This document shows positions 15,409 through 60,842 of a DNA stretch of 64,000 bases, in pieces. Each line of letters begins with the position of its first letter. Position 1 is the stretch's first letter. Under the pieces are notes generated by a model, which saw only the letters and a program-made list of their open reading frames with translations, searched no databases and had not been told where the DNA came from. Source of the stretch: a virus; IMG/VR virus record IMGVR_UViG_3300045988_103931, positions 1 through 64,000 of that record. One strand, given 5' to 3'. Position numbers and translations under genes: made by a program.

Positions 15409-16248
15409 ATGGCATACAAAGTTATTGATATATCTCAGTGGAATGGGAATATTGATTGGAATAAGGCGAAAAATGAAATAGATGGGGCTATTATCCGTGC
15501 GGGTTATCGTGGATATGGTGCAGCAGGAACATTAGCAACCGACACCAAATTCAACGAGAACATGAGTAATGCCATTGCGGCGGGTGTGCCTGTCGGGGTT
15601 TACTGGCTTAGTCAGGCATTATCAGAAGCAGAAGCAAAAGCCGAAGCGGTATATCTTGTGAGTCTCATGAAGAAATACAAGGTAGCATATCCTGTTTACC
15701 TTGACAGCGAACACGGAGAAATACACGGCAACGGACGCGCCGATAAGCTCGACAAAGGTACACGAACAAAATACGCAAAAGCGTTTTTAAAAGCACTCAA
15801 AGACGCAGGATACACGGCAGGACTGTATTGCTCTGAATGGTGGTACATGAATGATATTGACGGCAAATCCATCAGTGATGATGGTTATACAGTATGGTGC
15901 GCAAACATTACGAACAAGCCTAAGATAAGCAAATATGACGCATGGCAATACACATGGAAAGGTAAAATCTCTGGTATTAACGGTGATGTAGATGTAAGTT
16001 ATTTTTACAAAAAGTTCGGTGAGAAAACAACTGCCACGGCACAAAAACCTGCCGCGAAATACTTTGTAAAAACTACTTACACGGGTGTGTCATTGGTCGA
16101 GGGATTGCGTTCTATTGGCGCACAAAACACATTCGCTTATCGCAAGCAAATAGCAAAGGCAAACGGCATTTTGAATTACACAGGAACAGCGGTTCAAAAT
16201 ACTAAATTGCTTGATTTGCTCAAAAAAGGCAAATTAATCAAACCATAA
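15409..16248 (+). CDS. endolysin, GH25 muramidase with C-terminal wall-binding-like domain
   Basis: GH25 hallmarks are present: VIDISQWNG.IDW, GAIIRAGY, VGVYW and YLDSE. The C-terminal ~70 aa are unassigned. Confidence 0.85.
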   Translation: MAYKVIDISQWNGNIDWNKAKNEIDGAIIRAGYRGYGAAGTLATDTKFNENMSNAIAAGVPVGVYWLSQALSEAEAKAEAVYLVSLMKKYKVAYPVYLDSEHGEIHGNGRADKLDKGTRTKYAKAFLKALKDAGYTAGLYCSEWWYMNDIDGKSISDDGYTVWCANITNKPKISKYDAWQYTWKGKISGINGDVDVSYFYKKFGEKTTATAQKPAAKYFVKTTYTGVSLVEGLRSIGAQNTFAYRKQIAKANGILNYTGTAVQNTKLLDLLKKGKLIKP

Positions 16249-16332: not shown

Positions 16333-16354
16333 TCTCATACTCATAATCAGAACG

Positions 16355-16391
16355 AAGCTCATCCGATTATATTTCGGGTGAGCTTTTTTTG
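16355..16391 (+). terminator. intrinsic terminator of the lysis operon
   Basis: AAGCTCAtCCG pairs with CGGgTGAGCTT, followed by TTTTTTT. Confidence 0.7.
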
Positions 16392-16431
16392 TTGATAAAA
16401 ATATCAAAACAAGAAACAAAAAGATAACAAC

Positions 16432-16457
16432 GCGTTCATATCGTGGTAACATATATG
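16432..16457 (+). promoter_or_regulatory. promoter-like unit u0 (partial)
   Basis: GCGTTCATATcgTGGTAACATATATG. It shares the GTTCATAT and TGgTA.CATATAT elements with u1 and u2. Confidence 0.3.
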
Positions 16458-16458
16458 A

Positions 16459-16626
16459 GTTATACTTATAACATCACAGAGATGTGAAATATTTAAAGAA
16501 AAGAGGTAAAACCTTTCTCTTTGCTTTTAGCGCAGGTGTTTTATTATATTTTATAAGAACAGTCCGCTCATAACAAAAAATCGGCAAAACAAAAAATCCG
16601 TAACGAGCAATACGGATTTTTTTGTT
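16459..16626 (+). ncRNA. candidate short transcript 0
   Basis: It runs from u0 to the terminator at 16591-16626 and has no credible ORF. Confidence 0.2.
16591..16626 (+). terminator. intrinsic terminator
   Basis: ATCCGTA (16596-16602), an 8-nt loop, TACGGAT (16611-16617), then TTTTTTT. Confidence 0.65.
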
Positions 16627-16635
16627 TTCAATATT

Positions 16636-16690
16636 AATTTACTTTGTGTTCATATTGAGTTCATAGTGGTGTGGTATCATATATGTACAG
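16636..16690 (+). promoter_or_regulatory. promoter-like repeat u1
   Basis: ATTTACTTTGtGTTCATATtgAGTTCATAgtggTGTGGTATCATATATgTACA. It is a near-copy of u2, with an extended -10-like TGTGgTATCAT. Confidence 0.4.
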
Positions 16691-16800
16691 AGTGATGTTC
16701 CGTTTAAAAATGTCGTAGTTTTTAAAAAAACATTTTAATCTGTCCTTTCTTTCCTATTTCCCCTTGTTTGAAAAACCCACGTCCGCAGCGTGGGTTTTTC
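16688..16800 (+). ncRNA. candidate sRNA 1 (~110 nt)
   Basis: It runs from u1 to the terminator at 16771-16800. The only ORF inside is 7 codons. Confidence 0.3.
16771..16800 (+). terminator. intrinsic terminator
   Basis: CCCACG (16776-16781), a 7-nt loop, CGTGGG (16789-16794), then TTTTT. An A-run lies upstream. Confidence 0.7.
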
Positions 16801-16807
16801 TTATTTT

Positions 16808-16860
16808 ATTTACTTTGCGTTCATATCAAGTTCATATATGCATGGTATCATATATACATG
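16808..16860 (+). promoter_or_regulatory. promoter-like repeat u2
   Basis: ATTTACTTTGcGTTCATATcaAGTTCATAtatgcaTGGTATCATATATACA. Confidence 0.4.
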
Positions 16861-16935
16861 AGATGATTTTAAATCAATCTCAACTCCGATCCGAAAAGTG
16901 CCTTGCTATTGCTCTATGCAAGGTGCTTTTTTTAT
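16858..16935 (+). ncRNA. candidate sRNA 2 (~80 nt)
   Basis: A 5' hairpin (GAGATGATTT / AAATCAATCTC) is followed by a terminator hairpin. Confidence 0.3.
16894..16935 (+). terminator. intrinsic terminator
   Basis: AGTGCCTTGC pairs with GCAAGGTGCT (10 bp including 2 G-U pairs), followed by TTTTTTTATTTT. Confidence 0.6.
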
Positions 16936-16962
16936 TTTCGAAAAGAATAGCGTTTTAATAAA

Positions 16963-17000
16963 TGCCGTCTGATTTTGCAATCGGACGGTTTTATTTTTTT
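16963..17000 (+). terminator. intrinsic terminator
   Basis: CCGTCtGATT (16965-16974), loop ttgc, AATCgGACGG (16979-16988), then TTTTATTTTTTT. Confidence 0.7.
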
Positions 17001-17778: not shown

Positions 17779-18099
17779 ATGAAAACACGCATTATCGAAA
17801 ATATTTCAATAGCATTGTATCTTTCTTTTATAGTCTTGTGTGGAACGGCTGCATACTGGTGGGAGAACCTCACGAGCGCGGAAACATTAATAGGGTGGTG
17901 TATTTGCCTTGCCGTGCTTTTTGCCGCTGTGAGCGGTTGGAGAGCGTTTGTGAGACATGGTCTTGAAGTCATAGAATGGAGAGCAACACATAGAGCAATC
18001 CAGTATGACGCAAGAGGAAGTAGACAGGATGAAAACCACCTTGGTTACGTTTCGTCAGAATCAATACGAGAGATCAGCAAGAGAGGAAGAAATGAATAG
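17779..18099 (+). CDS. membrane protein (two TM helices)
   Basis: 106 aa, with a hairpin plus AGAAAGG SD. Hydrophobic helices: ISIALYLSFIVLCGTAAYWW and LIGWCICLAVLFAAVSGW. Confidence 0.5.
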   Translation: MKTRIIENISIALYLSFIVLCGTAAYWWENLTSAETLIGWCICLAVLFAAVSGWRAFVRHGLEVIEWRATHRAIQYDARGSRQDENHLGYVSSESIREISKRGRNE

Positions 18100-18457
18100 C
18101 TCAATATGGAAAGGAAAAGAAATAAGTGATTCACTTATTTTGAGAACAACGGAACGTTCCGCGCTAATTGCAATGCCACGTTATAGTGAGTATAGCGGAT
18201 ATACTTTTTGGCATCCTCTAAAATTAGTTCGGCGCGAATATGGCATTGTGTCTCTCAGATATACGGATGATTTTCAATTCCGTTTGCAGAAACGTGAGAA
18301 AACAAGAAAAGGGCAATGGGAACTTACGGACGAAGTTACACTAACGGCAGAAGAAATTGAGGATATTCTATCGGAAGAAGAACCACTGATATACACGCCG
18401 AAACCGTTAGAACCAGAACACGCAACAGTTGATGAAAGTTTGGTGGATGATGAGTAA
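18029..18457 (+). CDS. hypothetical protein
   Basis: ATG 18029 lies behind GAGGAAG. The ORF-track start at 18005 has no SD. Confidence 0.45.
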   Translation: MKTTLVTFRQNQYERSAREEEMNSSIWKGKEISDSLILRTTERSALIAMPRYSEYSGYTFWHPLKLVRREYGIVSLRYTDDFQFRLQKREKTRKGQWELTDEVTLTAEEIEDILSEEEPLIYTPKPLEPEHATVDESLVDDE

Positions 18458-19691
18458 TACAAAAACACAAAATCAAGCAATAGAAAAATTAGGACGATTG
18501 AAAGTTGGTGCGCTATTTATGGAGATGGGAACAGGGAAAACGAAAACCGCCCTTGATCTTATCGCGTCCAAACAAAACAAGATAGATTATACGCTTTGGA
18601 TATGCCCTTGCTCATTAAAAACGGAAATCGAATCCGAACGGCAAAAGTGGCATCCAGAATTAGAACTTGACGTTGTAGGCTGTGAGAGTATCGGCAGCAG
18701 TAACAGAATTTATCTTGAACTCATGAAAAAAGTAGAGGGAAAGCGAACATTTATCGTTGTAGATGAAAGTCTTAAAATCAAGAATCGTCACGCAAAAAGA
18801 ACGATGAGGATAACAAAGTTAGGAGAAGAAGCAAAGTATAAATTGATTCTCAACGGAACTCCTATATCGAAAAGTTATTGCGATTTGTGGACACAAATGG
18901 AATTTTTAAGTCCGAAAATACTCTCGATGTCATACAATCAATTCTACAATACATACTGCGAATATTACACGCGCGGAAAATACAAAGGAAGAATAAAGAG
19001 GTTTGTAAATATACCACACCTTATAGATAAGATATCTCCGTATGTATTTGAAGCTGCACTTGATATAAACACTCAGAAAATTTACCATACACGTTGTTAC
19101 TCAACTCCGATGGACAAATACGAAGAATACAAAGAAGAAATATTCGAACAATATTATGATAATAAAGAGGATGACTTAAATTTTAATGCGTTCTCAATGA
19201 AACTCCAAAAATATTATGGCGAACATTCCGACAGAACGGAATGCATAAATAACCTAATAGAAGAAATAGGCGATCAGGTGATTGTCTTTGTTAGATTTAT
19301 AACGAGCATTCCCGAAGGAGCGCGCAAAATCACAGGAGCTGAAAAACAGTGTGAACGCAAGAATATATTGGATTCATTCAAACGAAAAGAATTTAATGTG
19401 TTGTACATTACTTACGGTTGCGGGTCTTTTGGGCTTAACTTACAGTTTTGCAAGAATATGATATTTGCGGAACACACATGGGACTACGCTGTGAGGGAAC
19501 AAGCAGAAGCAAGAATATATAGAATGGGGCAAGGTGAGGAAGTCAATTATTACAACATGATATGTGATGGCGTGGGACTTGAGGAAATGATATTCGATTG
19601 TGTATCAAAGAAAAGCAATATGCTTGATACGGTGAAAAAAGAGATACAGAAGCACAACGGTAGTACAAAAGATTTTATCAAAACCCTATAA
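18429..19691 (+). CDS. SNF2-family helicase/ATPase
   Basis: Motifs: MGTGKTKTAL (I), VVDESLKIKN (II), LNGTPISKSYCDLWTQMEFL (III) and EQAEARIYRMGQ (VI). The start may be ATG 18447. Confidence 0.7.
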   Translation: MMKVWWMMSNTKTQNQAIEKLGRLKVGALFMEMGTGKTKTALDLIASKQNKIDYTLWICPCSLKTEIESERQKWHPELELDVVGCESIGSSNRIYLELMKKVEGKRTFIVVDESLKIKNRHAKRTMRITKLGEEAKYKLILNGTPISKSYCDLWTQMEFLSPKILSMSYNQFYNTYCEYYTRGKYKGRIKRFVNIPHLIDKISPYVFEAALDINTQKIYHTRCYSTPMDKYEEYKEEIFEQYYDNKEDDLNFNAFSMKLQKYYGEHSDRTECINNLIEEIGDQVIVFVRFITSIPEGARKITGAEKQCERKNILDSFKRKEFNVLYITYGCGSFGLNLQFCKNMIFAEHTWDYAVREQAEARIYRMGQGEEVNYYNMICDGVGLEEMIFDCVSKKSNMLDTVKKEIQKHNGSTKDFIKTL

Positions 19692-19694
19692 ATA

Positions 19695-19766
19695 TGAACA
19701 ACGATTTACAAATTGTTTATAAAATAATGCAGAATTAAGTGCCGCTTGTGTGGTATAATATATACA
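19695..19766 (+). promoter_or_regulatory. early promoter/operator cassette c2
   Basis: TGAACAacGATTTACAaatTGTTTAtAAAATAATgCAGAAT...TGTGGTATAATATATACA. Confidence 0.6.
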
Positions 19767-19813
19767 GAACAAAAGAAAAGCCTACGGGCAAAGCGAGAAA
19801 GAGAGAAAATAAA

Positions 19814-20287
19814 ATGGCAAGAGCGGTAGCAAAGTGTAAATGCGCGACGTGTGGCAAAGAGTTTGAAGTTATCAAGCGTGATATGCGCAACAGTGCAGCG
19901 GCAAGAGACTTTGAAGAATGGGCGGCTAAAAACTGTGATGAATGCTCGGAATGCTATAAAGCGAGAATTGAAACAGAGAAAGCTAAGAAATTCAACGAGA
20001 TTGACGCAGAAGTCAATTTTCCCACACTGACAGCAGTATCTGATAAGCAGTTGGCGTTTGCCAACAAGAGACGTACCGAATATGTTATAGGGCATACAGA
20101 AACAATCAAAGCAATGAGTGAGTTTCTGAAAACACTTGATAGCCGTAAACAAGAGTTGGAACGGATGTGTGCCGAACACGGGACAACATTTGAAGTGGAA
20201 TATAAAAGAACTATCGAACTATATAAGAAAGAATATACAATCCTGACAGAGACAAGCGCAGGAAAGCTCCTTGATGTTATCGCGTAA
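19814..20287 (+). CDS. zinc-ribbon protein, function unknown
   Basis: ATG 19814 lies behind GAGAGAAAA. The protein carries CKCATCGK...CDECSEC. Confidence 0.5.
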   Translation: MARAVAKCKCATCGKEFEVIKRDMRNSAAARDFEEWAAKNCDECSECYKARIETEKAKKFNEIDAEVNFPTLTAVSDKQLAFANKRRTEYVIGHTETIKAMSEFLKTLDSRKQELERMCAEHGTTFEVEYKRTIELYKKEYTILTETSAGKLLDVIA

Positions 20288-20346: not shown

Positions 20347-21207
20347 GTGTTTTATATAGGAGATTGGGATAAGCAGAAAATCATTTCCCACTACATCGAA
20401 AACAATGATGTAAAAAAAGTCTTGGTGATATACAGCAAGCAACGGAATGAATATGAAACGGGCATAGAAACCCGATATATAGAATTACATCTTGCTAAAG
20501 CACATGAGACGCACTACGAGTTATTACAGTACATAAACAGATACACGCTAATTGTTATGGATGATTTGTTAGTATCACAGCAAAGATACATGAACGAATA
20601 TAACTGTGTTGCTAACTTTGTCAATCAAACCCCGCACAGACTTGTATTTAACTATCTCCCGTTTATTGAGCAAAAAGACGATTTCATGATTCTGCTTGAC
20701 TTTTACAACAGAGTGAAATACAAGGGCGAAAGATTTGATTATGAGCTTTTCAAAGACTTCAAATACTTCATCAAGCCTGTGCATATTAAAGTCAATTTTC
20801 ATGAAGTGGAGGTAATGAATGAAGATGTAAGAAATTACAATCAGCAAAGGGATGAATTGTTCGCCGAAATCGGTCTTGCAAATCCGCAGATAATCCCTAA
20901 TAGATTATCCGCAATGTGTGGAGATGTAAAGTATAAAACCGCTCCATTCGATAAAATGATTGCGAGAAATCGGCGATATAAGAATTTAACCACATTCAAG
21001 GATTCTGCGGTTAATCCGATTCTGGAATTTCCCGTTAAAAGACAAGACTTTGTTGAGTGGATTTCAAGAACGAAACAGACGGAGATTGATGTATTAACAA
21101 GCCAGTTGAGCATGGATGAATGGTATAAACAGGATTATCTGAACTGGATAGAAAGGCTTGAAGAATTTTATGATAAGGCAAACATTTATCGGAATAAACG
21201 TAGTTGA
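20347..21207 (+). CDS. module-1 protein X1 (unknown; paralog of 22846..23565)
   Basis: GTG 20347 lies 6 nt after AGAAAGG. It shares IGDWDKQKI / IGEYDKTKI, HRLVFNYLPF / HRLIFNYFPI and DFMIL with X2. Confidence 0.6.
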   Translation: MFYIGDWDKQKIISHYIENNDVKKVLVIYSKQRNEYETGIETRYIELHLAKAHETHYELLQYINRYTLIVMDDLLVSQQRYMNEYNCVANFVNQTPHRLVFNYLPFIEQKDDFMILLDFYNRVKYKGERFDYELFKDFKYFIKPVHIKVNFHEVEVMNEDVRNYNQQRDELFAEIGLANPQIIPNRLSAMCGDVKYKTAPFDKMIARNRRYKNLTTFKDSAVNPILEFPVKRQDFVEWISRTKQTEIDVLTSQLSMDEWYKQDYLNWIERLEEFYDKANIYRNKRS

Positions 21208-22309
21208 AGCAACAAAGAAAAGAATCGAGTGGATTTTTGATAACTTTGAACACATAGTCGTAAGCATTAGTGGCGGGAAAGATAGCACGGTTCTTGCGTA
21301 CATGACATTGCAAGAAGCGCACAAGAGAAACCGAAAGATAGGCATTTTCTTCCTCGATGAAGAAGTGGTCTATCAAAGCACGGTAGATCAGGTGCGGTAC
21401 TTGATGGAACTTTATCCAGAAAACACGGTGAAGATGTGGTATCAATTGGAGTTTAATCTCACAAATGCCACAAGCCTTGATGAAACACAGTTTAAAGTAT
21501 GGGATAAAGACAAGCAAGATATTTGGATGAGACCGAAAGAACCGGACAGCATTACATATCCAACATGGGACTTGAGCAAAGAAACAATCCGCAACAAAAA
21601 GAAAGGTTTTGGGTTTTTCGACGCTATGGATAACTTTGTAGCCACATACACAAATACGGCATATCTAATCGGATTAAGAGCAGCCGAAAGTTTGAACAGG
21701 TGGAGAGCGGTTACAAAGTACGCAGGAATCCCAAACGTCTATTGGAGTACATACAGAAACAACGGCAATTATAACCTATATCCGCTGTACGATTGGAACT
21801 TTCAAGACATTTGGAAATATCTTTACGAAAACAAAATAAGATACTCCAAAATATACGATTATCAGTATAAAAAAGGACTTGGTATGAAAGACATGAGAGT
21901 GTCGAGTTTGATACACGAAAAGTCATTTCATTCACTTGTCGAACTTCCGGAGTTTGAGCCGGAAACATACGATAAGCTAATAATCAGAACACAGGGGGTG
22001 CAGGTCGGAAATATCTATGGCAAAGACGATTTAATGCTCAGATGTAGGAAATTGCCTAAAAATTTCAAAGATTGGATGGAATACAGAGATTTTCTGTTAT
22101 CGACTGTAAAGGAAGACGATATAAAAGCGATATTTGAAAAGCGTTTCTCGAAACAGCTTAACAACAACTACGTCGCGCGTCAGCAGTGCAAACAGCTAAT
22201 ACTGAATGACTATGAAAACAATCTTGGAATAACGAACGGCGAGGACAAACGAGAAAAAGAACTGAAATACTGGAAAGGAGTTTTATATGGTGAAAGTTAT
22301 ACAGAGTGA
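21170..22309 (+). CDS. module-1 PP-loop ATPase, PAPS-reductase family (IbrA-like)
   Basis: It has the PP-loop VSISGGKDS, plus RKIGIFFLDEEVVY, LRAAESLNR, YPLYDW, RVSSLIHEKSF and a C-terminal ARQQCKQLILNDYENN. It overlaps X1. The ORF-track start is 21158. Confidence 0.7.
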   Translation: MIRQTFIGINVVEATKKRIEWIFDNFEHIVVSISGGKDSTVLAYMTLQEAHKRNRKIGIFFLDEEVVYQSTVDQVRYLMELYPENTVKMWYQLEFNLTNATSLDETQFKVWDKDKQDIWMRPKEPDSITYPTWDLSKETIRNKKKGFGFFDAMDNFVATYTNTAYLIGLRAAESLNRWRAVTKYAGIPNVYWSTYRNNGNYNLYPLYDWNFQDIWKYLYENKIRYSKIYDYQYKKGLGMKDMRVSSLIHEKSFHSLVELPEFEPETYDKLIIRTQGVQVGNIYGKDDLMLRCRKLPKNFKDWMEYRDFLLSTVKEDDIKAIFEKRFSKQLNNNYVARQQCKQLILNDYENNLGITNGEDKREKELKYWKGVLYGESYTE

Positions 22310-22844
22310 AAAAGGAGAAATTAAACTACCATGTTTCGATGTGGTGTTGGTTGACATTGATAAGGTTGTGGCGAATGACTACAACCCCAACCATGTCAGC
22401 GTAAAAAATATGCAGTTACTTGAAGAAAGCATTATAAGCAACGGCTTTTGTTTCCCTGTGGTAACCATACATGATGAAAAGAAAGACGAGTACATTATTA
22501 TAGACGGCTTTCACAGATACACGATATTCAAGGACTATCTAAAGGCAAAGCAGCTTCCTGTTGTTGTACTCGACCACGATTTGAGCAAACGTATGATTGC
22601 AACGGTTCAGTTTAACAGAGCAAGAGGAGTTCATCATGTGGAGCTTATGGGGGATCTTGTGAAAGCGTTGGCGGGAGAGGGAATAACAGACGAACAAATA
22701 GCTGTAAGCCTTGGAATGGAAATGGAGGAAGTGTACAGGCTGAAGCAAATCACGGGCGTTGCAGAGCTGTTTAAAAATCAGTTATACAGTCCTGCATGGG
22801 AAATGAAAGACATGGACAAGAACGTGTACTATCAGGGAGATTGA
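22287..22844 (+). CDS. module-1 ParB-N-domain protein (IbrB-like)
   Basis: Motifs: ANDYNPNHV, NGFCFPVVT, IIIDGFHRYT and VQFNRARGVH. It overlaps the IbrA-like gene. Confidence 0.7.
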   Translation: MVKVIQSEKGEIKLPCFDVVLVDIDKVVANDYNPNHVSVKNMQLLEESIISNGFCFPVVTIHDEKKDEYIIIDGFHRYTIFKDYLKAKQLPVVVLDHDLSKRMIATVQFNRARGVHHVELMGDLVKALAGEGITDEQIAVSLGMEMEEVYRLKQITGVAELFKNQLYSPAWEMKDMDKNVYYQGD

Positions 22845-22845
22845 T

Positions 22846-23565
22846 ATGAAAAAAATATACATAGGAGAATACGACAAAACAAAAATTGTCAATGAATATA
22901 TCTCCGAAAACAAAATTGATAAGGTATATATTATCGGAGACGATATATCAATTGACTTTGAGAACAAGGAAAACATAAAATTTTCCGATACCATAATGTA
23001 CAAATATTTCTACAGGCTATTGCAGGAAATCAATAAGGATTCGTTAATCGTACTTAATGAGTGCTTAAAAAAGCAGAACAGATACGATTTAACATATAAC
23101 TGTATCAGACGGTATATGTTACAGACAGACCACCGCTTAATCTTCAACTATTTCCCCATCGTCAAAGAACAAGAAGATTTTATGATCTTGTACGATATGC
23201 TTCAAAACAATCCGTTCTTGAAAGAACCCTATAAATATATCACTGAATTTGAAAATGTTGAAGTTAGCAAGGTTGTATTTGATGTCAACAAAACCGACGT
23301 TGTTTTGCCAGATGAGTGTGAAGCAGAGTATGAGCGTGAAAAAGAAAACCTCATCGGCAAGGTGAATAAAGACCCCGATATAATTCCGAGAGGGTTGTTA
23401 AGATTCAGCGAAAAGAAGAAACCAAAGAACTATGACAGTTTGGCGAAAATTAAGCCAGTGATGAACGTGGCAGTAAGTCAGTTAAAGGTTGATACGTATT
23501 ATTACAACGAATTACTAAACTTTAGAAAGGAATTGACCGATGTCTTACAAAAAATACACGGATAA
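22846..23565 (+). CDS. module-2 protein X2 (unknown; paralog of X1)
   Basis: 239 aa. See X1 for the shared motifs. Confidence 0.6.
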   Translation: MKKIYIGEYDKTKIVNEYISENKIDKVYIIGDDISIDFENKENIKFSDTIMYKYFYRLLQEINKDSLIVLNECLKKQNRYDLTYNCIRRYMLQTDHRLIFNYFPIVKEQEDFMILYDMLQNNPFLKEPYKYITEFENVEVSKVVFDVNKTDVVLPDECEAEYEREKENLIGKVNKDPDIIPRGLLRFSEKKKPKNYDSLAKIKPVMNVAVSQLKVDTYYYNELLNFRKELTDVLQKIHG

Positions 23566-24655
23566 AACCGTGTTAGAAGCAACGAAAGAGAGAATCAGCT
23601 ACATTTTCGATGAGTTTGAAAACATCATTGTTTCTATCAGCGGGGGGAAAGACAGCGAAGTGTTGTGTTATCTTGCACTTCAAGAAGCAAGGAAAAGAGG
23701 CAGAAAGATAGGCATATTCTTTTTGGATGAAGAAGTTGTTTATAAATCCACCATAGAAATGGTGGAGTACCTCATGAGTATGTACCCCGAAAACACAAAC
23801 AGATTTTGGTTGCAAATTCCTTTTAATCTCACAAACTCAACAAGTTTCGCTGACGGGCAGGTGAATTGTTGGGAACAGGCAAAAAAACCTGTATGGATGC
23901 ACAAGAGAAGTGAGAAGAACATACTCAGAAAAACATGGTCGCATGAGACGCATATCGCAGACAAAAACAAAGGTTTTGGCTTCTACGATGTAATGTACAA
24001 CTTTGAATATTCATTTGAAAACACAGCTTTTCTTGTCGGATTAAGAGCGGACGAAAGTTTGAACCGATACAGAACAATGGTAAAGCGCAAAGGCTACAAG
24101 GACATTTACTGGAGTACAAAAAGAGCAGGAACAAATTATTCGTTTTATCCTCTTTATGACTGGGGATTCAATGATGTATGGAAGTTCATCGGAGAAAACA
24201 ATCTGAAATATCATAAGTTTTATGATTTTGCCTACAAAAAAGGAAAGCACATCAATGAGATCAGAGTGTCGAGCTTGACGCACGAAAAAAGTTTCAAGTC
24301 GATTCAAGACTTGCCCGAATTTGAGTTTGATACATACGAAAAACTATTGAAGCGTATAAAAGGCATTTCGTTTGCGCAAGAAACCGCAAAAGACAGGAAA
24401 ATGTTTAAGGTGCAGAAGCTCCCGCAGAACTATAAGTCGTGGAGAGAGTACAGAGATTTTCTACTTGCAACATACCCAGACGAAAGCAAGAAACCTATTT
24501 TTGAAAAACGATTTGCCAAGCATCTTGACAATGAATTTGTTGCAAGACAGCAGTGCAAACAGCTTGTTCTTAACGATTACGAAAATAACTTCCCGGTAAA
24601 AAACACAGAAGACCCGATTATGGAAAGAATCAATTATTGGAGGAAAGTGTTATGA
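23540..24655 (+). CDS. module-2 PP-loop ATPase, PAPS-reductase family (IbrA-like)
   Basis: Motifs: VSISGGKDS, RKIGIFFLDEEVVY, LRADESLNR, YPLYDW, RVSSLTHEKSF and ARQQCKQLVLNDYENN. It is collinear with the module-1 copy. Confidence 0.7.
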   Translation: MSYKKYTDKTVLEATKERISYIFDEFENIIVSISGGKDSEVLCYLALQEARKRGRKIGIFFLDEEVVYKSTIEMVEYLMSMYPENTNRFWLQIPFNLTNSTSFADGQVNCWEQAKKPVWMHKRSEKNILRKTWSHETHIADKNKGFGFYDVMYNFEYSFENTAFLVGLRADESLNRYRTMVKRKGYKDIYWSTKRAGTNYSFYPLYDWGFNDVWKFIGENNLKYHKFYDFAYKKGKHINEIRVSSLTHEKSFKSIQDLPEFEFDTYEKLLKRIKGISFAQETAKDRKMFKVQKLPQNYKSWREYRDFLLATYPDESKKPIFEKRFAKHLDNEFVARQQCKQLVLNDYENNFPVKNTEDPIMERINYWRKVL

Positions 24656-25185
24656 AGATAGATATTCCGTGCCTTAACATCAAACTTGTTGACAGAGATA
24701 TGTTACAGGCGAATAATTACAACCCGAACAATGTGCCAAAGGATAAGATGGAATTGCTCAAGCAGTCGATTATCGACAATGGTTTTTGCTTTCCTATTGT
24801 AACGATTTGGAGCGAGGAAGATGAGAAGTATATCATCATTGATGGATTCCATAGATATACAATGTGTATGCCGGAGTGGTTGGACATAAAACAAGTGCCT
24901 GTCGTTGTGTTGAAACACGATTTAAGTCAGCGAATGGCAGCAACGATTCAGTTCAACAAGGCAAGGGGAGTTCATGCCGTCGACGGTGACGCAGAAATTG
25001 TTAGAAGTCTAATCGAACAGGGATTGAGCGAGGAAGAAATAAGCAAGCACCTTGGTATCGACATGGAAACCGTACTGAGATATAAGCAACTCACAGGAAT
25101 TGTTGAACTGTTCAAGAACGTTGAATATAGCAAGAGTTGGGAAGTCGGAGAGTTCGACGGAGAGGATGAAAAGGAGGATAGATAA
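24652..25185 (+). CDS. module-2 ParB-N-domain protein (IbrB-like)
   Basis: ATG 24652 lies behind GGAGGAAAG. Motifs: ANNYNPNNV, NGFCFPIVT, IIIDGFHRYT and IQFNKARGVH. Confidence 0.7.
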   Translation: MKIDIPCLNIKLVDRDMLQANNYNPNNVPKDKMELLKQSIIDNGFCFPIVTIWSEEDEKYIIIDGFHRYTMCMPEWLDIKQVPVVVLKHDLSQRMAATIQFNKARGVHAVDGDAEIVRSLIEQGLSEEEISKHLGIDMETVLRYKQLTGIVELFKNVEYSKSWEVGEFDGEDEKEDR

Positions 25186-25817
25186 TGAGCAAATGGGAAT
25201 ACGGCGGCGTATATAAGAATTACGATATGGATGGAGAAATCAATATCGGCGGCGGTATCTTGAAAGTGCATAATATTTTCGATCCGCTCCCTGATTTCAT
25301 GAAAAAAGCGGATTGCATTTTCTGTGACCCGCCTTGCTCACAAGGAAACATAAACAGCTTTTACACAAAAGCCGATAGAACAGATTATCAGACGAGCTAT
25401 GACCCGTTTGAAAATCGTTTCTTTGAGTGTATAGATGAGATAAAGCCTAACACTTTGTTTGTTGAAGTGTTCGCACAAAATGCAGCGAATTTCGCGGACA
25501 GATGCAATGATAGATATGCAAATATCCATGTCTACGAAACTACTTATTATCACAAAAAAGATTGCAAGTGTTTTATCATAGCTTGTTCAAACGTCATCGA
25601 CATACATAATCTGCCGTTTGAGGACATGGACGAAGAGGACGTTATAGCGTGGATAGGAAAGAATATTAATTATGAGTGTATTGGTGATTTATGTATGGGC
25701 AGAGGACTTGTAGGATGGCACTCATATATCAACGGAAAGCCTTTTGTCGGAACGGAAATAAACAAAAAACGGCTTGCTGTGCTTATTGATAAGATAACAA
25801 AACATCCGAAAAATTGA
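25185..25817 (+). CDS. divergent DNA-methyltransferase-like protein (motif IV before motif I)
   Basis: 210 aa. CIFCDPPCS resembles motif IV ((D/N/S)PP(Y/F/W)) but carries Cys. C-terminal GDLCMGRGLVG...GKPFVGTEIN resembles the AdoMet motif I of beta-class N4/N6 MTases. Confidence 0.45.
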   Translation: MSKWEYGGVYKNYDMDGEINIGGGILKVHNIFDPLPDFMKKADCIFCDPPCSQGNINSFYTKADRTDYQTSYDPFENRFFECIDEIKPNTLFVEVFAQNAANFADRCNDRYANIHVYETTYYHKKDCKCFIIACSNVIDIHNLPFEDMDEEDVIAWIGKNINYECIGDLCMGRGLVGWHSYINGKPFVGTEINKKRLAVLIDKITKHPKN

Positions 25818-25907: not shown

Positions 25908-26138
25908 ATGACGTTAAAAGAAAAAAGGATTGAATCAGGATATACACAAAGTGAACTATCAGAAAAAGCAGGAATGAGCCTTAGAACATTACAGCACTTT
26001 GAAAGAAATTATAGACTGCCAGACAAAGCGCAACTTGAAACGCTCTGCAAACTTGCAATCGTGCTTAATTGTCCGATTGACGATTTAATTGTGAACGACG
26101 ATCTGAGAGAGCTATACCGAAAAGCGAAAACACTATAA
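25908..26138 (+). CDS. XRE-family HTH transcriptional regulator
   Basis: 76 aa, with GYTQSELSEKAGMSLRTLQHFERN. Confidence 0.75.
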   Translation: MTLKEKRIESGYTQSELSEKAGMSLRTLQHFERNYRLPDKAQLETLCKLAIVLNCPIDDLIVNDDLRELYRKAKTL

Positions 26139-28064: not shown

Positions 28065-28805
28065 ATGAAATACATATACAAACCGAAAGGCAAGGCAAAA
28101 GAGTACGGAGATTATGCAATTAACATTTACACCGGATGTCCTCACAGGTGCTATTATTGCTTTGCTCCAAGTGTTTTGCGTAAAGACAAAGAAAAGTTTC
28201 ACACTTGCGTTGAACCGCGAGAAAACATTGTAGAGGGCGTAAAAAGACAGGTGGAGCGCGAGAACATTACAGGAAAGTTAATACACCTATGTTTCATTTG
28301 TGATCCGTACCCAAAAGGATATGACAGCACACCAACAAGAGAGATAATCAAAATTCTTAAAGGTGCGGGAAATCATGTGCAGATTCTCACAAAGAATGGA
28401 TTGGACGCTGCACGTGACTTTGATTTGCTTGACGGTGATGATTGGTTCGGAGTGACTTATGCAGGATATGACGAATATGTGCTTGACAGAACATATATCC
28501 CGATTGAAGAACCGGGCGCGGGAAGTCCGCATGATAGGCTTCTTGCTCTTGCGGTAGCACACAATAGAGGAATCAAAACATGGGTATCCGCCGAACCAAT
28601 TATTAACGCTGCCGATGTACTTCAAGTCATGGAATTTGCAGATTATGTTGACCGTTGGAAAGTCGGAAAGATGAATTATCACGAATCTAATATTGACTGG
28701 GCGGCATTCGGCAGACTTGCAGAAGCAACGCTTAATTCGTTACACAAAGAATACTACATAAAAGAAAGTTTAAGAAAGGAAATGGAAAATGGCAACAAAG
28801 ACTGA
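28065..28805 (+). CDS. radical SAM enzyme (COG1533 / spore-photoproduct-lyase-like)
   Basis: GCPHRCYYC (CxxxCxxC) lies near the N-terminus, with a downstream CDPYP motif. Confidence 0.65.
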   Translation: MKYIYKPKGKAKEYGDYAINIYTGCPHRCYYCFAPSVLRKDKEKFHTCVEPRENIVEGVKRQVERENITGKLIHLCFICDPYPKGYDSTPTREIIKILKGAGNHVQILTKNGLDAARDFDLLDGDDWFGVTYAGYDEYVLDRTYIPIEEPGAGSPHDRLLALAVAHNRGIKTWVSAEPIINAADVLQVMEFADYVDRWKVGKMNYHESNIDWAAFGRLAEATLNSLHKEYYIKESLRKEMENGNKD

Positions 28806-29439
28806 ACAGGTACTTGAAATTAGACTGATTGAGCTTGAAACAGTAACGCTCAAAATTGTAGGAGACACACCGCTTATCATGCACGCATGGAGTGAAAAGG
28901 CAAAGCGTGAAATGCTTGAAAAGCAGATGAAAGCAACAAAGACAAAGAGCCGTGATGCAAAGAATCCTGTAGAGGACTTCATTCGTTCTATGTATTGGCT
29001 GACACCAATGCCAACGGAAATGACAGAGGACGGATTCAATAAAGCTATCGTAGCAGGAGCAAGATTCGGTTTCCCTGTGACAGCATTCAAACAAGCTGCA
29101 ATCTCCGCTTCATATCGACTTGGATGGAGCAAAGACAAAATGTCTCTTAGAGGTGTATTCTTCATTGATGGAGACGAAAATCAGATGCTCGAAATCAAAA
29201 GTGACCCGCCGATTATGCGGGAAGATATGGTAAAGGTTGGTATGGGAACGGCAGATATTCGCTATCGTGGAGAGTTCCGTAATTGGAGCACGGATATGAA
29301 AATCACGTACAACAAAAACGGTCAGTATTCTTTGGAACAGATAATTAACATTATCAATGCGGGTGGTTTTTGCTGCGGCGTAGGCGAGTGGAGACCGGAA
29401 CGAGATGGACAGAATGGCACATTCCACGTAGCGACCTGA
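28789..29439 (+). CDS. hypothetical protein translationally overlapped with the radical SAM gene
   Basis: 216 aa with a 17-nt overlap. I recognised no family (GFPVTAFKQA..., GVGEWRPERDGQNGTF). Confidence 0.5.
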   Translation: MATKTEQVLEIRLIELETVTLKIVGDTPLIMHAWSEKAKREMLEKQMKATKTKSRDAKNPVEDFIRSMYWLTPMPTEMTEDGFNKAIVAGARFGFPVTAFKQAAISASYRLGWSKDKMSLRGVFFIDGDENQMLEIKSDPPIMREDMVKVGMGTADIRYRGEFRNWSTDMKITYNKNGQYSLEQIINIINAGGFCCGVGEWRPERDGQNGTFHVAT

Positions 29440-38072: not shown

Positions 38073-39617
38073 TTATTGCCTGTTTATTTTCGCGTAAAAG
38101 AAAACATTCGGCTGCCGGAATGAATTGTTATACTCCATATCCCCATTAGGGGAGACGATGAGCGTAATATCAATGCTTTCGTCGCTGATAATGATTGATT
38201 CTACAAATTTATCAAAAATCGTTTTTAACACTTCATCGTCTGTATCGTCGGAGATGGATAACATTTTGTTTAGGTAATCGACTATCATTGAATGCGTCAA
38301 GGTTAATTTCGTTTGACGTTCAATATTGTATATTTGTTGTTCTACTTCTTGCAGTTCGTTTTCTTTCTCGCTGATATGCTCCGCAAGAAACGAATCGCTG
38401 ACTATTCTTTTTGCTCTTAGATCGATCAATTCTTTCATTTCGGATTTCAATGCAGATGAACGAGATTTTAACTGTTTGAGTTTGTCCTTTTGTTCGGTCG
38501 GGTTTTCTCCCAATATTTTAAGCATTTCGTTTGCAATGCTGTAAATAGATTTTTCGTTTAATATGTGACGCTTTATTTCTTTCATTGTGATTTCTTCTAA
38601 ATAGTCTTTTCTGATTCTTTTGCAAGAACAAGTGTGATAGTCTTTGCTTTGCGAACAGACATAATATTTATAATCGTATTTTTTCCCGTTCTGCATACTG
38701 CCGGAACGGATACCGAAATAGTGACTTCCGCAGTTGGCACATCTGATCTTTCCTGTCAAAGCATAAAGCTCTTTCCTCTTTCGCGGTCTAACGCCTTTTT
38801 GCGTGCTGTGCCGATATTGTACTCTGTCCCATAGTTCTTTATCTATTATAGGCGGTATTATATCATGCACAATTATTGGCTCATGCCCTTGCGCACTGTA
38901 CCTTAGTACGCCGATATAAAAATCATTTCTAAGCATTCTTGCTATCGTTTGTATGCTAAAATATTTCCCGCGCCTTGTGAATGCTCCATTGTCTTTGAGA
39001 TATGTCTGTAAATATCTAAGAGAATAATTATCGGCATACAACTCAAATATCTTGTTTACGATTTTACTTTCAAATTCATCTGGAACATACTTCTTTCTTG
39101 TTTTCTTGCCGTGTTGTACAACCTCTAATTTGTAACCATATGGAACTGTACCACCCGCGAAAAATCCCTCTGACACCATTTCCCGCATTGCGCTTTTAAC
39201 GTGGTCGCTGATAACGGCACTTTGATATTCGTCTATGTTTGCCATAACACCAATCATTAGTTTGCCTGACGATGTTTCATCGTCTACCATTTGCGTTACG
39301 GATATGAGTTTAACGCCGTGCTTCTTAAACAACTGGCGATATTTGTGACTTTCGTAAGCATTCCGAAAAATACGGCTGAATTTGTAGACTACAACAACGT
39401 CAATCATTCCGTTTTTAACGTCCCGTATCAATTCATGAAACGCTTCACGCCCTGCAACTTTCGTCCCTGTTATAGCTTGATCTATATATGTTTTTGTGAG
39501 TGGCATATCGTTTTTGTCTAAATATGCTTGGCACTCTGTTAGCTGATATTCAATAGAGAAACCATCGTCTTGTTTCGTGTCTGAATATCTTCCATATATC
39601 CCTGTCCTTTTGTTCAT
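38073..39617 (-). CDS. large serine recombinase (integrase)
   Basis: 514 aa. N-terminal IYGRYSDTKQDDGFSIEYQ, a recombinase domain, Cys motifs (CANCGSHY...YYVCS) and a C-terminal coiled coil. Confidence 0.9.
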   Translation of the reverse strand: MNKRTGIYGRYSDTKQDDGFSIEYQLTECQAYLDKNDMPLTKTYIDQAITGTKVAGREAFHELIRDVKNGMIDVVVVYKFSRIFRNAYESHKYRQLFKKHGVKLISVTQMVDDETSSGKLMIGVMANIDEYQSAVISDHVKSAMREMVSEGFFAGGTVPYGYKLEVVQHGKKTRKKYVPDEFESKIVNKIFELYADNYSLRYLQTYLKDNGAFTRRGKYFSIQTIARMLRNDFYIGVLRYSAQGHEPIIVHDIIPPIIDKELWDRVQYRHSTQKGVRPRKRKELYALTGKIRCANCGSHYFGIRSGSMQNGKKYDYKYYVCSQSKDYHTCSCKRIRKDYLEEITMKEIKRHILNEKSIYSIANEMLKILGENPTEQKDKLKQLKSRSSALKSEMKELIDLRAKRIVSDSFLAEHISEKENELQEVEQQIYNIERQTKLTLTHSMIVDYLNKMLSISDDTDDEVLKTIFDKFVESIIISDESIDITLIVSPNGDMEYNNSFRQPNVFFYAKINRQ

Positions 39618-59615: not shown

Positions 59616-60842
59616 ATGAATATATCGGTTGCAATCAATCCGGCATATATGCCGTATCTTGACAAACCGCAGTTTATGCAAATATTCTATGGCGGTTCTT
59701 CATCCGGCAAGAGTTTTTTTATATGTCAGAAAATTGTGTTAGATAACCTTGCGGGAGTTAACTGGCTTGTGTGCCGTAACGTTGGCAGAACGATACGAAA
59801 GAGCGTATACAACGAAATATGCAAAGCCATATCAAGAATGGGACTTAAAGAGTATTTCAAGGTTAATGCGTCTGATATGGTTATCACCAACAAACTGAAT
59901 GGAAAACAGATATTGTTCACTGGATTGGATGACCCCGAAAAGGTAAAGAGTATAACACCCGCTGACGGTGTGCTTGAACGTGTCTTTGTGGAAGAAGCCA
60001 CAGAGGTTAAACGTCAAGCTATTTTGCAATTAAAGAAACGTCTGCGTGGTCGATCGCCAAAAAGCAAATGTATTATTTTAGCCTTTAACCCGATACTCAA
60101 AACACATTTTATATACAAGGATTTTTTTGGCGGTTGGCAGGACGATAAAACAGTCTATGAAGATAGGGATTTGTTAATTGTCAAGACAACATACAAGGAT
60201 AACATATTCCTAACCGAAGACGATAGACGATTACTTGAAGATGAAACAGACCCATATTTCTATAACGTTTATACATTAGGAAATTGGGGCGTGCTTGGAC
60301 ACGTCATTTTCAAGAATTGGCGTGTTGAGAATATACAAGAACAGATTCCGAACTTTGATAGAGTGCATCAAGGCTGCGACTTTGGTTTTTCTGATGACCC
60401 GAACGCATTGATAAAAGTACATCTCGACAAGGCACACAAAAAGATATATGTGTATGACGAATGGTATCGAGCGGGAATGAATGACGATGAATTATTGAGG
60501 GTATGCAGAAACTTCTGTGGAAATCAATATCTCATATGCGATAGTGCAGAACCTAAAACGATAGATTTTCTTGCTGCAAACAATATTAAAGCAGTTGGAG
60601 CGGTAAAGGGAGCAGACAGCATAAACCGTGGCATACGTTGGCTGCAAAGCTATGAAATCGTAATTGATGTACATTGCCAAAATTTCAAAAATGAGATTGA
60701 GCAATACCATTGGAAAGAGGACAAATACGGCAATGCAATGGCAATACCTGTGGATGAGAACAACCACTTGATAGACGCATTAAGATATGCCTTAAATGAC
60801 GAAATACTTGCGGCAGAAGTAAAAGCAGGAAAGAGATTCTAA
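59616..60842 (+). CDS. terL: terminase large subunit (PBSX/XtmB-type)
   Basis: Walker A (YGGSSSGKS). 408 aa. It lies downstream of TerS. Confidence 0.85.
   Translation: MNISVAINPAYMPYLDKPQFMQIFYGGSSSGKSFFICQKIVLDNLAGVNWLVCRNVGRTIRKSVYNEICKAISRMGLKEYFKVNASDMVITNKLNGKQILFTGLDDPEKVKSITPADGVLERVFVEEATEVKRQAILQLKKRLRGRSPKSKCIILAFNPILKTHFIYKDFFGGWQDDKTVYEDRDLLIVKTTYKDNIFLTEDDRRLLEDETDPYFYNVYTLGNWGVLGHVIFKNWRVENIQEQIPNFDRVHQGCDFGFSDDPNALIKVHLDKAHKKIYVYDEWYRAGMNDDELLRVCRNFCGNQYLICDSAEPKTIDFLAANNIKAVGAVKGADSINRGIRWLQSYEIVIDVHCQNFKNEIEQYHWKEDKYGNAMAIPVDENNHLIDALRYALNDEILAAEVKAGKRF

Follow-up and report, generated by a model that had tools for sequence, protein, structure and literature searches.

The stretch of DNA analysed here (the window, 64,000 nucleotides (nt), positions 1 to 64,000 of IMG/VR virus record IMGVR_UViG_3300045988_103931) carries a doubled form of a phage gene cassette. 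Three genes, X, A, and B, occur twice in the same order, at 20347-22844 and 22846-25185, and are followed by a fourth gene, M, at 25185-25817. A encodes an IbrA-like PP-loop enzyme and B an IbrB-like protein of the ParB/Srx fold. X probably encodes a degenerate relative of SNF2 ATPases, and M a protein with the predicted fold of DNA amino-methyltransferases. A gene for an SNF2-family ATPase is found upstream. The same genes recur together in other phages and prophages. As the original prediction proposed, this gene context is best explained by a DNA-directed role. That the cassette encodes a DNA-directed machine for covalent modification has, in our estimate, an even chance.

A conserved unit and its doubled copy

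The genes of the cassette in the window are listed below (aa, amino acids; ORF, open reading frame). The ORFs and the junction sequences confirm what had been described for this region: a collinear triplet that occurs twice, six genes that all overlap or abut, and an SNF2 gene 5' of them.

18429-19691, plus strand: SNF2, a compact SNF2-family ATPase of 420 aa; likely start ATG at 18432 or 18447; a 182-aa ORF separates it from X1
20347-21207, plus strand: X1, 286 aa; GTG start with AGAAAGG 6 nt 5' of the GTG; the product opens with MFYIG, as in its homologues
21170-22309, plus strand: A1; ATG start (the longest ORF starts with TTG at 21158); 38-nt overlap with X1
22287-22844, plus strand: B1; GGAAAGGAG, 7 nt, then the ATG start; 23-nt overlap with A1
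22846-23565, plus strand: X2, 239 aa; ATG start; 1-nt gap from B1
23540-24655, plus strand: A2; ATG start; 26-nt overlap with X2
24652-25185, plus strand: B2; ATG start; 4-nt ATGA overlap with the A2 stop
25185-25817, plus strand: M, 210 aa; ATG start; 1-nt TAATG overlap with B2

In both copies the B gene overlaps the end of A, and the junction sequences have strong Shine-Dalgarno sites at most starts of the X1-M run. The plus strand from 18.0 to 26.1 kb is a run of tightly packed genes, and the terminator scan found no strong plus-strand terminator from ~17.0 to 25.8 kb. The region of ~18.0-25.8 kb is read as a single translationally coupled operon. The same scan found four strong intrinsic-terminator-like hairpins at 16354-16989, within 650 nt 3' of the endolysin gene; the regional terminator count is 15, while the shuffle expectation is 6.6 +/- 2.6. 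These hairpins form a sharp transcription boundary ahead of the accessory region in which the cassette lies.

Gene neighbourhoods were surveyed in 52 X-seeded loci and 79 new M-seeded loci from IMG/VR, all scanned with family hidden Markov models (HMMs). In 49 of the 50 evaluable X-seeded viral loci, A and B come after X, which bears out the proposal that X is a real third component of the module. M comes after B in 36 of 46 X-seeded loci, and an M-like gene is found somewhere in the locus in 43 of 46. SNF2 is upstream of X in 27 of 46 evaluable X-seeded viral loci. When M is the seed, A and B are found upstream of it in every evaluable locus (73/73), and X is present in 58 of 71. The real unit is therefore SNF2-X-A-B-M. 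The original prediction had treated M as a divergent gene that caps the module, but by these counts it is rather a core member. Its view that the SNF2 and methyltransferase-like neighbours are meaningful holds, since M has A-B upstream in all loci counted and proteins exist in which SNF2 and X are fused.

All X-seeded IMG/VR matches are viral contigs. X is also found in fifteen species-representative genomes, mostly of Clostridia, among which prophage context was checked only for L004. X homologues are encoded, for example, by Clostridium luticellarii DSM 29923, Peptoniphilus ovalis MSJ-1, Caldicoprobacter algeriensis TH7C1, and Pelotomaculum propionicicum MGP. X-A-B-M exists in a prophage of Bacillus (Heyndrickxia) coagulans (assembly GCA_009936615.1), where SNF2 immediately precedes it, and in contigs of virulent T4-like gut phages (L005-L008), where it lies among replication genes. 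Neither X nor M has a tblastn match in 50,697 GenBank phage records, while IbrA-like proteins match 223 of these records. The cassette is thus met so far only in uncultured phages and prophages.

Besides the window, four related contigs (L012-L015) have the doubled arrangement, X-A-B-X-A-B(-M). The original prediction held that roughly half or more of the residues are identical between the two copies. In pairwise BLASTP this is true of A (56%, E 2e-151) and B (54%, E 6e-69), but X1 and X2 are only 33% identical over 190 residues (E 2e-27); X evolves fastest among the three module proteins. At the DNA level, the triplets resemble each other only in short motif-coding patches, the best being 98 nt at 71%, as expected from the earlier description of the copies as collinear paralogs rather than recent duplicates. 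Trees of X, A, and B were built by neighbour-joining without bootstrap, and for that reason only the deep split common to all three is used. In these trees copy 1 groups with the T4-like gut-phage clade, and the copy-2 genes branch off deeply as a clade of their own rather than as sisters of copy 1; X2 falls in a separate clade with L012-L015. Contig L099 has a single cassette, SNF2-X(short)-A-B-M, whose A, B, and X proteins are 72%, 77%, and 42% identical to A2, B2, and X2, respectively. The copy-2 type is therefore a self-sufficient lineage, as this lone cassette has its own SNF2 and M.

The duplication in place that was originally suggested does not agree with these results, and a recent in-place tandem duplication is ruled out by the DNA repeat comparison together with the three trees. 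The simplest account of the doubling is a joining of two cassettes from different lineages, with the loss of one SNF2 and one M. Another example of a second pair is found in L051 and L060, which independently have X-A-B plus a very divergent A-B pair. SNF2 of the window is 38% identical to the SNF2 of L013, and M is 59-62% identical to its counterparts, far below the conservation of A and B among the same relatives, implying mosaic exchange of the flanking parts. The six triplet genes were compared with their orthologues in L015 and L013 by the proportions of nonsynonymous (pN) and synonymous (pS) differences, which replace a dN/dS ratio because synonymous sites are saturated. The pN is 0.04-0.22 and the pS 0.75-0.97 (saturated). 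The A2 orthologues, for example, are 83-96% identical despite the saturated synonymous sites. Both copies are thus kept under strong purifying selection.

Protein families of the cassette

A1 and A2 pass the Pfam thresholds of two families in the HMM searches. With PAPS_reduct (PF01507) they score 53 and 62 bits (cutoff 22.5; E 5e-14 and 1.2e-16), and with DUF3440 (PF11922) 45 and 33 bits (cutoff 25; E 1.3e-11 and 6.5e-8), the latter covering only the first half of the model. They also match phrog_2302 at 1e-87 and 2e-77. A1 is 30% identical over 316 residues (E 3e-44) to the annotated IbrA of Escherichia phage PhiR5_2. These results support the IbrA-like assignment that had been made for A from its motifs. 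The PP-loop SISGGKDS is found in both A1 and A2; among 22 IbrA-like sequences SGGKDS is invariant, as are many other positions, and the motif GLRxxESxxR is conserved. No cysteine is invariant among the 22 sequences, and the commonest, C344, is replaced by Val or Ala in six. A thus has no set of iron-sulfur (Fe-S) ligands and no Cys dyad. Its nearest solved relatives are FAD synthase, CysD, and CysH.

B is IbrB-like, again in agreement with the first assignment. B2 passes the cutoff of ParB_N (PF02195; 29.1 bits, cutoff 26.3, E 1e-6) and B1 falls just under it (22.5 bits, E 1.2e-4). Both match the ParB-like phrog_2159 (1.5e-57 and 2e-52), and the annotated IbrB of PhiR5_2 shares 41% identity with B1 (E 5e-44). 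Three motifs, ANxYNPN, DGFHR, and NxARGxH, are invariant in 21 IbrB-like sequences, a set that includes the IbrB proteins of Escherichia coli phage PhiR5_2 and Streptococcus thermophilus phage CHPC1230. The invariant residues are N30, N33, P34, N35, D73, G74, H76, R77, N110, R113, G114, and H116. When the family profile is compared with the PDB, the N-terminal part of B matches Noc (7ol9), ParB (4umk), and SbnI. The C-terminal third is helix-turn-helix (HTH)-like. B also matches the ParB-like N-terminal part of a profile labelled 'DNA methyltransferase' (phrog_498, 1e-10 to 4e-13). A role as a partition ParB was considered and rejected: B has IIDGFHRYT at the position of GERRxRA, and its TIGR00180 scores are 24 and 38 bits, with a cutoff of 58. 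The cassette and its conserved flanks contain no ParA gene, and no search for parS sites was made.

The original prediction could not place X in any family. X has no match in Pfam, PHROG, or NCBIfam, and a PDB sequence-profile search with the X family returned none either. Remote-homology and fold searches, however, give an SNF2-like fold with degenerate Walker A and B motifs. An AlphaFold model of X was obtained from 21 sequences (predicted local distance difference test score (pLDDT) 86, predicted template modelling score (pTM) 0.83). The top 50 Foldseek matches of this model in the PDB are SNF2-family ATPases or their close relatives, except for two XPB and one RecQL5 helicase of superfamily 2 (SF2), with E from 5e-6 to 6e-4 and TMq up to 0.56. 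They include Rad5, INO80, the Sulfolobus Rad54-like protein, ISWI, CSB, and CHD1. Against BFVD, an uncharacterised phage protein ranks first (TM 0.77), ahead of phage SNF2 helicases (TMq up to 0.60). When the X family is aligned by hhalign with the SNF2 proteins of the same loci (E 5.5e-4, probability 30%), SNF2 motifs II and III are in register, as seen in the pairs TLIVMDDLL/TFIVVDESL, QNR/IKNR, and HRLVFNYLP/YKLILNGTP.

Of the Walker A motif only G7 and K11 are conserved in X. The Walker B position is NE in most members, including X2, and DD in X1. Four proteins of the representative library (P0208, P0220, P0229, and P0309) consist of an SNF2 ATPase, complete or nearly so, with X fused at its C-terminus. 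The fold matches, the lost catalytic residues, and these fusions together suggest that X is an SNF2 paralogue that has degenerated and acts together with the SNF2 motor. By its modelled fold X is an SNF2-like pseudo-ATPase with degenerate Walker motifs, presumed to be an adaptor. The family is small: 79 clusters at 90% identity were found by a word-indexed search, and 215 representatives at 50% identity (E <= 0.001) among 1.84 billion proteins. X2 lacks ~50 residues of the C-terminal half relative to X1 and still matches the X-family HMM at 5e-77.

Two other leads on X were followed and dropped. X1 has a weak PADLOC match to AbiEi (E 2.7e-4), which was set aside because X2 has no such match and the fold search is consistently SNF2. 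BLASTP found no relationship between X and the ~400-aa protein encoded 5' of ParB in Flavobacterium phage FCL-2, which is itself an SNF2 ATPase.

The SNF2 protein of the window is an active-looking translocase, judging from its motifs. It matches Pfam SNF2-rel_dom (1.2e-14), Helicase_C (2.5e-9), and phrog_62 (8e-81), and its translation contains Walker A MGTGKT, motif II VVDES, and motif VI QAEARIYRMGQ.

M of the window matches nothing in Pfam, PHROG, or NCBIfam. Among the matches listed, PF01555 (N6_N4_Mtase) is found in only 3 of 120 M homologues, and the sequence-profile match in the PDB is DpnA (E 0.014). The AlphaFold model of M (pLDDT 96, pTM 0.91) is more informative: its top 37 Foldseek matches in the PDB are all beta-class N6-adenine or N4-cytosine DNA methyltransferases, with E from 3e-7, including M1.HpyAVI, M.MboIIA, M.BceJIV, CcrM, M.RsrI, and M.PvuII. 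The motif order is that of the beta class, with motif IV DPPC at residues 48-51, motif I DLCMGRG at 168-174, and FVGTE near the C-terminus. The motifs for binding S-adenosylmethionine (SAM), DxCMGxG and the ribose-binding GTE, look intact. Motif IV (window 25326-25337) has Cys where an aromatic residue would usually stack against the flipped base. Across distinct members of the family motif IV is DPPW in 54, DPPC in 20 (the window included), DPPY in 4, and DPPG in 2; loss of the base-stacking aromatic is recurrent. By its model, then, M is a protein of beta-class DNA amino-methyltransferase fold, dedicated to the cassette. A profile comparison showed no relationship between M and the small methyltransferase or unknown genes beside IbrA-like genes in Bacillus phage 055SW001, Faecalibacterium phage Pioen, and Rhizobium phage P11VFA.

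Neighbouring genes and host phages

The window is part of a temperate myovirus. It has genes for tail sheath, tape measure, and baseplate, and the cassette lies in the long accessory stretch that separates the lysis genes from those for integration. A megablast of the whole region against GenBank phages gave no match. Genes around the cassette are the following.

15409-16248: endolysin
18005-18457, plus strand: orf150, a small protein directly 5' of SNF2
19739-20287, plus strand: orf182, a Cys-rich protein (CKCATC...CDECSEC) between SNF2 and X1
25908-26138, plus strand: Xre-type HTH gene directly 3' of the cassette (Pfam HTH_3, 5e-13)
38073-39617, minus strand: serine integrase
59616-60842: large terminase
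61273-62751: portal

The small orf150 has no Pfam family, and its stop codon overlaps the candidate start codons of SNF2. Homologues are found directly 5' of SNF2 in L012-L015, L099, and L136; orf150 may be an accessory part and a sixth component of the cassette. The membership of orf182 is doubtful. It has no family in any library searched, and its homologues are limited to a few related loci (L015, L056, and L138). At the other end, 90 nt separate M from the Xre-type HTH gene, and this gap contains an inverted repeat and a promoter-like site. Homologues of the HTH gene are found directly 3' of M in L015, L066, L071, L072, L087, L131, and L133, and the IbrA-like gene of Flavobacterium phage 1H is likewise followed by an HTH gene. 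It may be a regulator, and its position after M recalls the controller (C) proteins of restriction-modification systems. About 2 kb 3' of the cassette is a gene for a radical SAM protein of 246 aa (28065-28805; Pfam 1.2e-9, phrog_13321), with CPHRCYYC near its N-terminus, followed by a phrog_4652 protein at 28789-29439.

Related cassettes have other neighbours and insertions. In the T4-like gut phage contigs, which are 118-186 kb long, an HNH/NUMOD4 homing endonuclease gene is found between A and B (L005:10029-10667, also in L006-L008, L016, and L017). In L009 (3195-7408) X-A-B-M is directly followed by Csf1, two Csf3 genes, and a second, short (~250 aa) PAPS_reduct protein, and the same Csf-type arrangement exists in L011, L019-L021, L092, L093, and L112. 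The Csf1/Csf3 set with its PAPS_reduct gene looks like a type IV-B CRISPR-Cas module with a CysH-like accessory. Contigs of this type thus have two different PAPS-reductase-family genes within 5 kb.

In cultivated phages IbrA-like genes adjoin ParB-like genes, often methyltransferases, and also glycosyltransferases. Bacillus phages vB_BceS-M2 and 055SW001, for example, have an IbrA-like gene near ParB-like genes and methyltransferases. In Mycobacterium phage Kamiyu (genes 1-6, L162:73-4474) the IbrA-like gene lies between two ParB-like genes, immediately upstream of the terminase, which is the arrangement in cluster-B-type mycobacteriophages. Flavobacterium phage FCL-2 has an SNF2-ParB-IbrA block between terminase and portal. 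The positions in these two phages hint at a link to DNA packaging. In Microbacterium phage Rasputia (genes 152-156, L161:1-4146) two glycosyltransferases, an acetyltransferase, and a methyltransferase precede an IbrA-like gene annotated as 'PAPS reductase-like domain protein', which ends the operon. This operon is located at the right genome end and looks like a candidate DNA or glycan modification cluster. In E. coli an ibrA/ibrB pair ~84% identical to the PhiR5_2 pair is found in 1930 of 5426 complete genomes. In the one example inspected, uropathogenic strain UPEC 26-1 (L160:5956-7808), the pair is a stand-alone two-gene unit beside insertion sequence (IS) remnants.

Proposed function and known systems

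If the cassette encodes a machine for covalent DNA modification, its complex would bring together an active SNF2 motor that translocates on DNA, a pair of parallel X-A-B sets, and one shared SAM-binding M. B, with its ParB/Srx and HTH parts, would load on double-stranded DNA (dsDNA) and open or present it to the enzymes. M would flip a base and transfer a group, taken from SAM or from a SAM-derived donor, to an exocyclic amine. A would adenylate an oxygen function, perhaps a carboxylate of the newly added group or a phosphate of the backbone, and a nucleophile could then be ligated or substituted. The SNF2 motor would carry the assembly along the DNA, while X, as a catalytically dead SNF2 relative, would hold each pair of A and B on the motor or on the DNA. 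The outcome would be a covalent mark on phage DNA that shields it from host nucleases or tells phage DNA from host DNA. With two divergent X-A-B sets, two chemistries or two sequence contexts could be served by one motor and one M. Any particular chemistry is much less probable than modification in general. The more specific proposal is a motor-driven, post-replicative hypermodification pathway of phage DNA, in which A adenylates either a handle installed by M or, free of sulfur, the backbone, and the doubled sets make two marks with a common motor and a common transferase; it is tentative, and we consider it doubtful as a whole.

Several points weigh against DNA modification. Neither this cassette nor any IbrA/IbrB pair is known to modify DNA chemically, and no gene for donor synthesis (e.g., CmoA-like) was found in the cassette. 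The only experimental phenotype of IbrAB known to us is the one reported by Sandt and Hill (also cited in PMC4541368), in which the pair activates expression of prophage eib genes in E. coli. SNF2 is not in the immediate flank in ~40% of loci. The support that hhalign gives to the relationship of X and SNF2 is by itself modest. DPPC in place of DPPW or DPPY, in M of the window and 19 other members, could weaken or change catalysis. Finally, in temperate phages the cassette lies between the lysis and integrase modules, a position typical of lysogenic-conversion or exclusion genes.

A rival explanation, which we regard as not very likely, is that the cassette is a chromatin-level regulator. B would spread as VirB or KorB does, SNF2 and X would remodel nucleoid proteins, A and M would tune the process, and gene expression would be switched. 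IbrA and IbrB are annotated as 'co-activator of prophage gene expression' in phage records, and the IbrAB-like pair of E. coli, ybdNM, is under an H-NS-regulated LysR repressor (PMC9068703). The HTH of B, the lysis-integrase accessory region of temperate phages, and the Xre-type HTH gene next to the cassette fit as well. The cassette is, however, also found in virulent T4-like phages among replication genes, and its strict linkage to enzymes of DNA-methyltransferase fold and PP-loop type points to covalent chemistry. As a covalent DNA mark could itself yield expression effects, the regulator and the modification machine partly overlap. An exclusion system is unlikely. Such a system would mark or sense DNA and block rival phages or plasmids, with B as a ParB/Srx nuclease or NTPase effector. 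It draws on the moron-like position beside the integrase in L004 and the window, on the recurrence of PP-loop, ParB, and SNF2 domains in Dnd, Ssp, BREX type 4, and Dpd defence (PMC10853773, PMC12839542), on weak local PADLOC matches of A to DndC and BrxP, and on the type IV-B CRISPR-like genes that adjoin the cassette in several contigs. Against this, library scans recognised no restriction effector (restriction endonuclease, HNH, phospholipase D, or PglZ) and gave no full-length match to a PADLOC model, virulent T4-like phages have the cassette too, and the X-seeded IMG/VR matches are all viral contigs, with the checked prophage context limited to one of the fifteen genomes.

It is also improbable that A and B make or destroy a nucleotide-derived metabolite, with SNF2 and M only loosely coupled to this small-molecule chemistry. 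The ParB/Srx fold includes small-molecule kinases; B1 has weak SerK/SbnI matches (4e-8 and 1e-4, far below cutoff), and SbnI is among the PDB matches of B. PP-loop enzymes, such as the nearest solved relatives of A, act mostly on small molecules or RNA. Yet B has an HTH and is closest to the DNA-binding ParB and Noc, M has the predicted fold of DNA methyltransferases, and the SNF2-X fusions and the strict X-A-B-M order favour a DNA-bound complex. Phosphorothioation of the Dnd/Ssp type, in which A would add sulfur to the backbone like DndC or SspD and B would act like DndB, is very unlikely. The same pairing of folds, a PAPS-reductase-family PP-loop enzyme with a DGxHR-type ParB/Srx protein, is seen there, and A has local matches to DndC (PADLOC, 7e-9 to 2.5e-7; TIGR03183, 4e-5 and 9e-5). 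But the PADLOC matches cover only ~65 residues, TIGR03183 gives 22 bits where its cutoff is 290, A has no invariant cysteine that could provide Fe-S ligands or a Cys dyad, and no gene for a desulfurase, DndD/E, or SspB/C is found in the cassette or its conserved flanks. Least credible of all is an auxiliary metabolic gene (AMG), with A as a viral CysH that boosts sulfate assimilation of the host, although A has the Pfam PAPS_reduct match, its PHROG category is 'moron, auxiliary metabolic gene', and virome papers count such genes as cysH AMGs and note a DUF3440 clade (10.1101/2021.01.05.425418; PMC12323421). The CysH models TIGR00434, TIGR02057, and NF002537 score 30-38 bits against cutoffs of 154-254, and no catalytic cysteine is invariant. 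A has the extra DUF3440 domain and is obligately linked to partners that are ParB-like, SNF2-like, and of DNA-methyltransferase fold. Two copies per genome would also be odd for sulfur assimilation. The common sulfur label 'cysH' does not fit the DUF3440-bearing A in its present context.

Phage IbrA/IbrB pairs are already known as annotations. A literature search on IbrA/IbrB, IbrAB, DUF3440, and ybdN/ybdM found annotations and speculation on virulence or AMGs and no functional study. To our knowledge, no biochemical function is established for pairs of this type. No description was found of the X family, its SNF2 ancestry, the M family, the five-part cassette, or its doubling; an earlier mention in comparative genomics is possible. 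Such pairs are widespread: roughly one in three complete E. coli genomes has one, and so do 223 GenBank phage records. The cassette is the richest context of the pair, with an active-looking SNF2, a putative dead SNF2-like adaptor, and a dedicated enzyme of methyltransferase fold, and it makes covalent DNA modification a testable claim. The five-part operon is clonable in one piece. The cassette opens a concrete way towards the function of IbrA/IbrB. If the hypermodification pathway is true, it would give the first biochemical function for IbrA/IbrB (YbdN/YbdM), and a clade of viral 'cysH' auxiliary metabolic genes would prove misassigned. X and M are absent from the cultivated phage genomes searched, so that the pathway would be a blind spot of culture-based phage biology. 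The cassette may be a source of new DNA-modifying enzymes.

Known systems provide parallels for the single steps of DNA modification by the cassette. Phage CmoX, of methyltransferase fold, and CmoY, an adenylating amide ligase, hypermodify DNA cytosine, and ParBc genes are often found nearby (PMC12783734). The CmoA/CmoX/CmoY pathway resembles the cassette in combining an enzyme of DNA methyltransferase fold with an ATP-dependent, AMP-forming enzyme that adenylates a DNA-borne group, and in its ParBc genes. However, CmoX is a homologue of C5-cytosine methyltransferases, whereas M has the predicted beta-class amino-methyltransferase fold, and CmoY is an asparagine-synthetase homologue, whereas A belongs to the PAPS-reductase/DUF3440 family. 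The pathway also has the donor synthase CmoA, which is not seen here, and lacks SNF2 and X. Another example is 5mYOX176/ParB176, in which a DNA thymine dioxygenase depends on a phage ParB homologue for its action on dsDNA (PMC13229309). A small phage ParB is encoded beside a DNA-modifying enzyme, and its role is the one proposed for B. Its partner is an Fe(II)/2-oxoglutarate dioxygenase, and ParB176 is without an obvious DNA-binding domain, while B has an HTH.

In the Dnd system the PP-loop enzyme DndC acts in modification of the DNA backbone, and the inactive SNF2 domain of DndH, which X may resemble, is proposed to be a DNA binder (PMC10853773). DndABCDE and SspABCD share with the cassette the PAPS-reductase-family PP-loop enzyme and the DGxHR-type ParB/Srx protein, and in both the target is DNA. 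A differs in having neither the Fe-S cysteines nor the Cys dyad, and the cassette lacks the desulfurase, DndD/E, and SspB/C. Dnd and Ssp are cellular defence systems, whereas the present cassette belongs to a phage. ParB-methyltransferase fusions and large methyltransferase-helicase anti-restriction proteins (e.g., DarB of P1) exist in phages and plasmids. These proteins have ParB N-terminal, amino-methyltransferase, and SNF2 helicase domains; SNF2 of the window matches phrog_62, a profile of 1881 positions, and B matches phrog_498. In the cassette the domains are separate small proteins, and a PP-loop enzyme and a probably dead SNF2 paralogue are added.

The closest likeness is to IbrA/IbrB itself, i.e., the E. 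coli pair, YbdN/YbdM, and the phage pairs. In these as in the window, A has PAPS_reduct, DUF3440, and the PP-loop, B has the motifs ANxYNPN, DGFHR, and NxARGxH and an HTH tail, and the two genes are adjacent and overlapping. In Flavobacterium phages the gene order is different, SNF2-B-A. The E. coli pair stands alone, without SNF2, X, or a methyltransferase neighbour, whereas the pair in the window exists within SNF2-X-A-B-M and is present twice. The cassette is the IbrAB module in a greatly expanded form, rich in DNA enzymes.

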